Source: Phycisphaerae bacterium
GTDB taxonomy: Bacteria > Planctomycetota > Phycisphaerae > WQYP01
NCBI GenBank assembly: GCA_035524355.1
Contig: DATKPA010000021.1
Location: 1 to 64,000 of the forward strand
Reading direction: 5' to 3'
Length of the DNA stretch: 64,000 nucleotides
Part shown: in pieces, positions 9,129 to 9,213 of the stretch
How the letters are laid out: each line of letters starts with the position of its first letter
Numbering within the stretch: position 1 is the first letter of the stretch
Notes under the pieces: model-generated
What the model saw: only the letters and a program-made list of their open reading frames with translations
Database searches by the model: none
Told to the model about the DNA's origin: nothing
Made by a program: the position numbers and the translations under genes

Positions 9129-9213
9129 AGCTCGGAGCGGGACTCGAACCCGCGCGGCGCATCGCGCGCTGTGGATTTGCAATCCACCGCCTTCGCCTCT
9201 CAGCCACCCGAGC
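9129..9213 (-). tRNA. class-II (long variable arm, Ser-like body) tRNA with GCA (Cys) anticodon, U73
   Basis: 85 nt; acceptor GCTCGGG/TCCGAGC, Ser-like D-arm TGGCTGAGAGGCGAAGGC, anticodon arm GTGGA-TTGCAAA-TCCAC, 15-nt variable stem-loop AGCGCGCGATGCGCC. Confidence 0.5.

Follow-up and report, generated by a model that had tools for sequence, protein, structure and literature searches.

Which amino acid is carried by a bacterial tRNA that combines a cysteine anticodon with a long variable arm? A tRNA gene of this kind lies on the minus strand at positions 9129-9213 of a 64,000-nt stretch of Phycisphaerae DNA (hereafter the window, meaning the whole stretch analysed), within a dense array of tRNA genes. 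According to a review, a long variable arm is specific to the Ser, Leu and bacterial Tyr tRNAs (PMC4033280). A sequence-only reading of the locus had likened the tRNA to allo-tRNAs and Ser-Cys chimeras, seeing in it either a potential Ser tRNA for Cys codons or a Cys tRNA with an unusual body. The analysis presented here favours a simpler answer. With a probability of roughly three in four, the locus would encode a genuine class II tRNA-Cys that is charged by cysteinyl-tRNA synthetase (CysRS) and serves as the Cys member of the array.

Structure of the class II tRNA-Cys(GCA)

ARAGORN calls a tRNA-Cys(GCA) of 85 nt with the anticodon at position 34, and the Rfam tRNA family (RF00005) covers the identical interval with 53.3 bits (E = 1.9e-9), above the gathering score of 29. 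Both programs bear out the 85-nt class II tRNA with a long variable arm that had been read from the sequence, and ARAGORN had been proposed there as a check. The 7-bp acceptor stem (GCUCGGG/UCCGAGC) ends in the pair G7.U66 and is followed by U8 and G9. The D stem has 3 bp (GCU/GGC) and encloses a D loop of 10 nt. The anticodon stem (GUGGA/UCCAC) closes the loop UUGCAAA, with A37 next to the anticodon, and the T stem (GCGGG/CCCGC) has 5 bp and no bulge. G1:C72, G15 and C48 are all present.

The variable arm (AGCGCGCGAUGCGCCGC) projects between the anticodon and T stems. It consists of a single leading nucleotide, a stem of 4 bp, a loop of 5 nt and three unpaired 3' nucleotides, the last of which is C48. 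At 17 nt (9170-9154), it is somewhat longer than the 15-nt stem-loop described earlier, and with its 4-bp stem it departs from the variable loop of 4-5 nt that defines class I.

The GCA anticodon in the loop TTGCAAA and the discriminator U73 had been named as the main CysRS identity elements, and both are present. The tRNA is the only one with a GCA anticodon among the 32 tRNAs that ARAGORN finds in the window and is the sole Cys member of its array. The array indeed holds no class I tRNA-Cys, as the sequence-only reading stated.

Selection on the fold and the variable arm

The window tRNA was aligned with 83 Phycisphaerales genes, giving 84 sequences. RNAalifold folds this alignment into the cloverleaf and finds double compensatory changes at 13 of the 25 pairs, including pairs in the D, T and variable (V) stems. 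The D-stem pair 12-23 is A-U in 43 sequences, C-G in 36 and U-A in 4, and the T-stem pair 51-63 is G-C in 64 and C-G in 20. G15 and C48 are invariant. Hairpins are formed by 72 of the 77 distinct variable regions, with a mean minimum free energy (MFE) of -3.64 kcal/mol versus -0.75 kcal/mol for shuffles, and a GNRA tetraloop caps 51 of the 77.

A second alignment contains five sequences of the array type, from the window and loci L181, L184, L060 and L132. Paired cells amount to 99.2%, versus 30-51% in slid controls. Both sides have changed at 11 of the 24 pairs, and three of the four V-stem pairs are compensatory. The V stems are GCGC/GCGC in the window, GGGC/GCCC in L181, GAAG/CUUC in L184 and GAGG/CCUC in L060. 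In the aligned sequences all five stems of the class II tRNA-Cys show compensatory changes, and those that distinguish the V and T stems of the window tRNA from L181 point to selection maintaining the fold.

This conservation bears on the view that the locus produces a tRNA-shaped RNA with no part in translation, acting either as a decoy or sponge that engages tRNA-targeting nucleases or toxins, or persisting as a decaying copy within an array acquired by horizontal transfer. Several neighbouring tRNAs look defective or irregular, RNA-repair genes adjoin the array, no CCA is encoded, and sponge or other non-canonical roles have been proposed for array tRNAs (PMC8421152). Nevertheless, the stems are all intact, the orthologue in L181 differs by compensatory V- and T-stem changes, the Cys identity elements are kept, and there is exactly one Cys tRNA within a complete 20-amino-acid array. 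The array tRNAs of Anabaena are also reported to be functional (PMC8421152). A purely non-translational role is thus unlikely, and a decoy function would in any case be compatible with charging.

Identity elements and affinity of the tRNA body

The major determinants of CysRS are U73 and the GCA anticodon (PMC9976931; PMC13433404). LeuRS needs A73, and TyrRS needs A73 together with U35 (PMC13433404). G73 and a long arm occur on tRNA-Ser and tRNA-Sec, and SerRS reads the long variable arm but not the anticodon (PMC7609411). We collected 117 distinct full-length class II GCA tRNAs from genomes (the matches listed), viral contigs and metagenomes, and every one of them carries U73.

The geometry of the arm also separates these tRNAs from tRNA-Ser. 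On the 3' side of the V stem, the ARAGORN structures leave three nucleotides unpaired in about 85% of the class II Cys tRNAs and in all three Tyr tRNAs, versus a single one in 30 of 33 Ser tRNAs. With RNAfold, some class II Cys arms gain one outer pair and retain two unpaired 3' nucleotides. The V stem of the class II Cys tRNAs is short (2-5 bp), and the Ser stems in the same data are longer. The tRNA at 9129-9213 itself differs from tRNA-Ser in U73, in GCA, in its 4-bp V stem and in its three unpaired 3' nucleotides. In E. coli, SerRS reportedly reads the orientation and length of the variable arm, as is said to follow from work by Himeno, Asahara and Shimizu.

The D-arm resembles that of tRNA-Ser. 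Its mean identity is 0.60 to Ser D-arms, 0.43 to Tyr D-arms and 0.45 to Leu D-arms, and it contains C11:G24. The "Ser-type D-arm" of the sequence-only reading is only partly correct, as the likeness to Ser does not extend to the geometry of the variable arm.

A covariance model (R1) was built from 43 stand-alone Phycisphaerales class II tRNA-Cys genes, with the window excluded. Its best match in the window is 9129-9213 (67.2 bits), followed by Ser(GCU) (53.5), Tyr (51.4) and Leu (51.2). R1 gives still higher scores to a Paracoccus plasmid tRNA-Tyr (75.8 bits) and to a tRNA-Ser (69.1 bits). Whether or not the anticodon arm is counted, the window tRNA is nearest in sequence to the stand-alone gene L132, whose acceptor stem is nearly identical (GCUCGGA/UCCGAGC-U). 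As to descent of the body from a Tyr, Ser or Leu tRNA, identities with the anticodon masked are alike (0.59-0.62), the V-arm geometry is Tyr-like and the D-arm is Ser-like. The window tRNA has the features common to the family: a 7/5 branch, GCA, U73, G15 and C48, a V hairpin of 2-5 bp and 2-3 unpaired 3' nucleotides.

These features can be set against the proposal of a Ser-accepting or dual Ser/Cys chimera, in which charging by SerRS would place Ser at UGY codons, a mistranslation akin to that of allo-tRNAs or nev-tRNAs, perhaps only upon induction of the array. The class II body would suit such a tRNA, as SerRS ignores the anticodon and uses the long variable arm (PMC7609411). The D-arm is closest to Ser D-arms and shares C11:G24, and the array's own tRNA-Ser(GCU) carries U73, which suggests that the host SerRS may not need G73. 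However, the discriminator throughout the family is that of Cys and not that of Ser, and a V stem of 2-5 bp with 2-3 unpaired 3' nucleotides contrasts with the longer stems and single nucleotide of Ser. The branch is 7/5, neither 8/4 nor 9/3. More than 100 Phycisphaerales species have a stand-alone tRNA(GCA) gene of the same architecture, and systematic Ser at Cys codons would be deleterious to them. A chimera is accordingly quite unlikely. The comparison with allo-tRNAs and Ser-Cys chimeras is not supported, given the 7/5 branch, U73, the three unpaired 3' nucleotides and the lineage-wide occurrence of class II tRNA(GCA). Miscoding is disfavoured by the U73 of every family member, by an arm unlike that of Ser and by a design that is ordinary in the host lineage; there is no evidence for Ser/Cys miscoding at 9129-9213.

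Relatives in genomes, viruses, plasmids and metagenomes

Relatives were searched with a pattern that joins a Cys-type anticodon arm, a long gap and a T arm (GGATTGCAAATCC-N14-32-GGTTCRANTCC). The pattern occurs at no fewer than 120 loci in species-representative genomes. Among the 120 matches listed, 116 bear the label Phycisphaerae, Phycisphaerales, Phycisphaeraceae or Planctomycetota, and one, labelled "uncultured bacterium", is of identical sequence type. Two listed matches belong to mobile clusters, one a phage-like cluster of four tRNAs on a Marivivens contig and the other a tRNA array on a Paracoccus megaplasmid. A match in Halpernia is a fragment and was discarded as a false positive.

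Nearly every listed Phycisphaerales locus is a class II tRNA(GCA) of 81-88 nt with no other tRNA within 8 kb, and several of these stand-alone loci are on chromosome-scale assemblies. Judged from these gene predictions, stand-alone chromosomal tRNA(GCA) genes are of class II design throughout the Phycisphaerales, the host lineage. Since this design is ordinary there, the missing class I tRNA-Cys in the array would be expected and not a sign of recoding. One neighbouring uncharacterised open reading frame (ORF) is common to 39 of 110 stand-alone loci, so that synteny is partial. Most other seemingly conserved flanking ORFs are opposite-strand artefacts of high GC and were rejected.

In IMG/VR, the pattern is found in 57 viral contigs. 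Nearly all of these matches are called tRNA-Cys(GCA) by ARAGORN, are 81-92 nt long and lie in phage tRNA clusters, and they mostly end in U73-CCA. Against the 57 class II tRNA-Cys, viral contigs hold at least 120 class I tRNA-Cys. When cultured phages were searched with a class II Cys sequence of viral origin, all matches were shorter class I tRNA-Cys, mostly from Acinetobacter T4-like phages. Among viruses, class II tRNA-Cys is so far confined to uncultured contigs. In the megaplasmid array of Paracoccus sp. ME4 (NZ_CP151277.1, L175), a long-armed tRNA(GCA) ending in U73-CCA lies at about 4671-4753 on the minus strand. ARAGORN misses this tRNA, and model R1 scores it at 47.6 bits. The class II tRNA-Cys design is thus also carried in tRNA clusters of phages, plasmids and chromosomes.

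A metagenome scan for the D-arm type of the window tRNA yielded three informative arrays, L183, L181 and L184. L184 is a related metagenomic array of 28 tRNAs that includes tRNAs of 83-85 nt with variable hairpins for Lys(UUU), Asn(GUU), Ile(GAU) and Arg(UCG). These long-armed tRNAs, at 5056-5140, 7402-7484, 8188-8271 and 11035-11118, each score 52-60 bits with Rfam tRNA. The long-armed Asn and Ile tRNAs each have a nearby class I copy of identical anticodon. Long arms in such arrays would thus occur on class I isotypes beyond Cys.

A class II tRNA-Cys gene and a class I one of 74 nt stand in tandem at L139 (1659-1993), L160 (3383-3684) and L060 (4786-4987). The acceptor stem and D-arm are common to both copies in L139 and L160, which belong to two species, and the class I copy of L139 has an A31.C39 mismatch. 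From their sequences, these pairs resemble intermediate stages at which the arm was being lost or gained.

In L134, L138, L150, L180 and L104 and in the viral contigs L011 and L046, unrelated 5' sequence is joined to just the 3' half of the Phycisphaerales class II tRNA-Cys, which begins with the anticodon arm and runs through the discriminator. The half gene L134 shares a contig with the intact gene L063, some 40 kb away. Such 3'-half duplicates are the trace of integrative elements or prophages that use the class II tRNA-Cys gene as an attachment site.

Comparison with known long-armed tRNAs

No description of a 7/5 class II tRNA-Cys, or of its link to Phycisphaerae, was found in the literature, of which coverage was incomplete, so that a prior account is possible. 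The class II 7/5 tRNA-Cys is apparently a widespread and undescribed variant of tRNA-Cys.

The closest known tRNA is the selC* tRNA-Cys (Mukai et al. 2017, NAR, PMC5389517). It is likewise bacterial and has a long arm, U73 and GCA, and selC* is charged with cysteine. However, selC* has a tRNA-Sec-like 8/4 branch (PMC5389517; PMC7609411), often an A51a bulge, and longer anticodon and D stems, whereas the window tRNA has a 7/5 branch and a 3-bp D stem. Some forms of selC* carry a UCA anticodon and A1:U72, in place of the GCA and G1:C72 of the window tRNA. In the anaerobic Firmicutes and Deltaproteobacteria that carry it, selC* is linked to selB* and cysS*, and neither gene was found among 20 scanned ORFs, a subset of those in the window.

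As selC* is the only described long-armed tRNA-Cys and works with CysRS* and SelB* (PMC5389517), the window tRNA might by analogy be a specialised Cys isoacceptor with a dedicated partner instead of the housekeeping CysRS and EF-Tu. This is very unlikely, given that the branch is 7/5 and not 8/4, the A51a bulge is missing and G1:C72 is retained. Most stand-alone copies have no other tRNA within 8 kb, the one conserved flanking ORF that was examined is the uncharacterised one mentioned above, and no synthetase or elongation-factor domains were found in the same subset of 20 scanned ORFs.

Allo-tRNAs (Mukai et al. 2017) also pair a long arm with an anticodon other than those of Ser, Leu or Tyr, and they also come from metagenomes and tRNA polycistrons. 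They differ in an 8/4 or 9/3 branch, a tRNA-Sec-like long D stem with a tetraloop, the SerRS identity element G73 and many anticodons. The window tRNA has a 7/5 branch supported by covariation, a 3-bp D stem, a 10-nt D loop, U73 and a fixed GCA. Bacterial tRNA-Tyr shares a variable hairpin of 3-5 bp, about three unpaired 3' nucleotides, and a 3-bp D stem with a large loop, and its anticodon GUA is one base from GCA. It carries the TyrRS determinants A73 and U35 (PMC13433404), where the window tRNA has U73 and C35. The nev-tRNAs of nematodes (Hamashima et al. 2012, PMC3333845) likewise combine class II bodies with class I anticodons. These eukaryotic tRNAs are weakly expressed, have Leu identity and miscode Gly and Ile codons as Leu, whereas the identity of the window tRNA matches its anticodon.

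The interest of the locus lies in this family-level finding more than in recoding at 9129-9213. A 7/5 tRNA-Cys with a conserved extra arm, if standard in one bacterial order and recurrent in mobile tRNA clusters, would mean that tRNA class is more flexible in evolution than assumed. The family would offer a natural test case of how CysRS, SerRS and TyrRS discriminate class II bodies, and a class II scaffold with Cys identity that could be used in genetic-code engineering. For annotation, a class II body with a Cys anticodon does not automatically mean recoding, which bears on the isotype-conflict flags of tRNA finders.

Proposed function of the tRNA-Cys in the array

From the structure, identity elements, conservation, covariation and genomic context, we infer how a class II tRNA-Cys of this kind would be charged, used and regulated. 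The tRNA-Cys(GCA) would be transcribed within the polycistronic array of 30 tRNAs and processed at both ends, with CCA added post-transcriptionally because none is encoded. CysRS would then charge it through U73 and the GCA anticodon, and it would read UGU and UGC as cysteine. The extra arm would be directed away from the surfaces important for CysRS. Its geometry, together with U73, would exclude SerRS, TyrRS and LeuRS.

Several observations weigh against this interpretation. The single-sequence MFE fold of 9129-9213 is not the cloverleaf and is not significant (z = -1.58); non-cloverleaf MFE folds of single sequences are common among tRNAs. L139 and L160 pair the class II copy with a tandem class I tRNA-Cys of 74 nt, and other Phycisphaerales genomes, that of the window included, may have a class I copy as well. 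The Ser-like D-arm, including C11:G24, makes some recognition by SerRS possible from the sequence. Finally, the irregular Thr(CGU) and Ser(CGA) tRNAs and the non-G73 Ser tRNAs of the array suggest that some of its members may not function in translation.

A wider proposal, which is tentative and rather less probable than not, is that class II has replaced class I as the main, or even the sole, form of tRNA-Cys in the Phycisphaerales and that the arm was selected for a function. Cysteine would then join Leu, Ser, Tyr and Sec as a further long-armed tRNA family of bacteria. The GNRA-capped arm could be an identity element or anti-determinant that co-evolved with CysRS, or a shield against tRNA-targeting nucleases. 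A functional arm would explain why the same design appears in phages, plasmids and arrays linked to RtcR and RtcB. Such a switch would fit the long-armed Lys, Asn, Ile and Arg tRNAs of L184 and the loss of the arm from the four tRNA-Leu of the window.

The tRNA array and its neighbourhood

The features of the window are collected in Table 1. The array consists of 30 head-to-tail tRNA genes within 4.6 kb, which exceeds the 20 or more dense genes on one strand that define an L-array. It recurs with 99.9% identity in L183, from an independent metagenome, and a diverged syntenic array, L181, is 73-88% identical to it. A near-identity search of the array in cultured phage genomes gave three short tRNA matches only, so that it does not come from a known phage.

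Table 1. Coordinates of the class II tRNA-Cys, its array and the adjoining RNA-repair genes in the window
Feature	Position	Strand or unit	Description and source
Class II tRNA-Cys(GCA)	9129..9213	-	85 nt, 7/5 cloverleaf, no encoded CCA; ARAGORN, Rfam, model R1
Anticodon G34-C35-A36	9178..9180 (34 to 36 = 9180 to 9178)	-	Loop at 9176-9182; sequence and ARAGORN
Variable arm, 17 nt	9154..9170	-	A + GCGC/GCGAU/GCGC + CGC; ARAGORN bracket string
Discriminator U73	9129..9129	-	Read from sequence
30-gene one-strand tRNA array	7868..12504	-	All 20 amino acids; L-array type; ARAGORN and Rfam
rtcR, sigma-54-dependent activator of RNA repair genes	13078..14703	-	Pfam RtcR 9.2e-84, Sigma54_activat 4.3e-49; NCBI RtcR HUO07337.1
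rtcB RNA ligase	17434..19032 (ORF coordinates)	+	Pfam RtcB 1.1e-100; called product 499 aa
tRNA-Asn-like gene	14945..15019	divergent rtcB operon	ARAGORN; U73-CCA, one acceptor mismatch
tRNA-Gln(CUG) gene	16755..16826	divergent rtcB operon	ARAGORN

The rtcR gene immediately precedes the array in the direction of transcription, both being on the minus strand. An operon divergent from rtcR and the array contains, in order, the tRNA-Asn-like gene, a Band_7 gene, the tRNA-Gln gene, an ORF of 225 aa and rtcB. L-arrays are long, one-strand, supernumerary tRNA arrays that have spread horizontally and occur in Planctomycetes among other phyla (PMC8421152). According to the same paper, rtcB is enriched near L-arrays and translational stress induces the Anabaena array; the rtcR and rtcB genes beside the window array agree with this enrichment. 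The Anabaena trn operon (Santamaria-Gomez et al. 2021, PMC8421152) is likewise a one-strand supernumerary array with rtcB nearby. It is regulated through direct repeats and TrcR, whereas the window array adjoins rtcR. The terms long-armed tRNA-Cys and arm-less tRNA-Leu are absent from the text of PMC8421152. Because it belongs to a presumably supernumerary set beside RtcR and RtcB, the tRNA-Cys of the window array is probably a stress-inducible spare.

Candidate sigma-54 -24/-12 elements precede the array (12843-12857, minus strand) and the rtc operon (14838-14852, plus strand), although matches with two mismatches number 53 in the window versus 63 expected and are not above chance. Scans for sigma-70 promoters and terminators gave nothing informative. 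The window comes from a metagenome-assembled genome that NCBI labels "Phycisphaerae bacterium", with exact protein matches that include RtcR (HUO07337.1) and a phosphoglucomutase (HUO07330.1).

Bacterial tRNA-Leu is usually long-armed. All four tRNA-Leu genes of the array (7980-8053, 8084-8160, 8877-8951 and 12430-12504, minus strand) are class I, with 74-77 nt and a variable loop of 4-5 nt. They retain A73 and a Leu-type D-arm (GGCGCAAUGGGUAGACGC), and the tRNA-Leu at 218-292 of L181 is likewise class I. Within the window array the arm is lost from Leu yet present on Cys.

Several other members of the array are irregular (9044-9116, 10787-10860, 11789-11874 and 12020-12108, minus strand). Thr(CGU) has three acceptor-stem mismatches. 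For Trp(CCA) and Ser(CGA), the Rfam tRNA-Sec score exceeds the tRNA score, yet it is below the gathering threshold (37.3 and 38.6 bits). The two Ser tRNAs had been described as carrying discriminators other than G73, and they do: Ser(CGA) at 11789-11874 has A73 as well as an aberrant D-arm, and Ser(GCU) at 12020-12108 has U73.

The GC skew of the window is very pronounced. It ranges from -0.3 to -0.45 over 1-30 kb, is positive from 32 to 52 kb and is negative again from about 54 kb. It does not simply track gene strand, as a plus-strand gene of 870 aa (20043-22655) sits at a skew of about -0.4.

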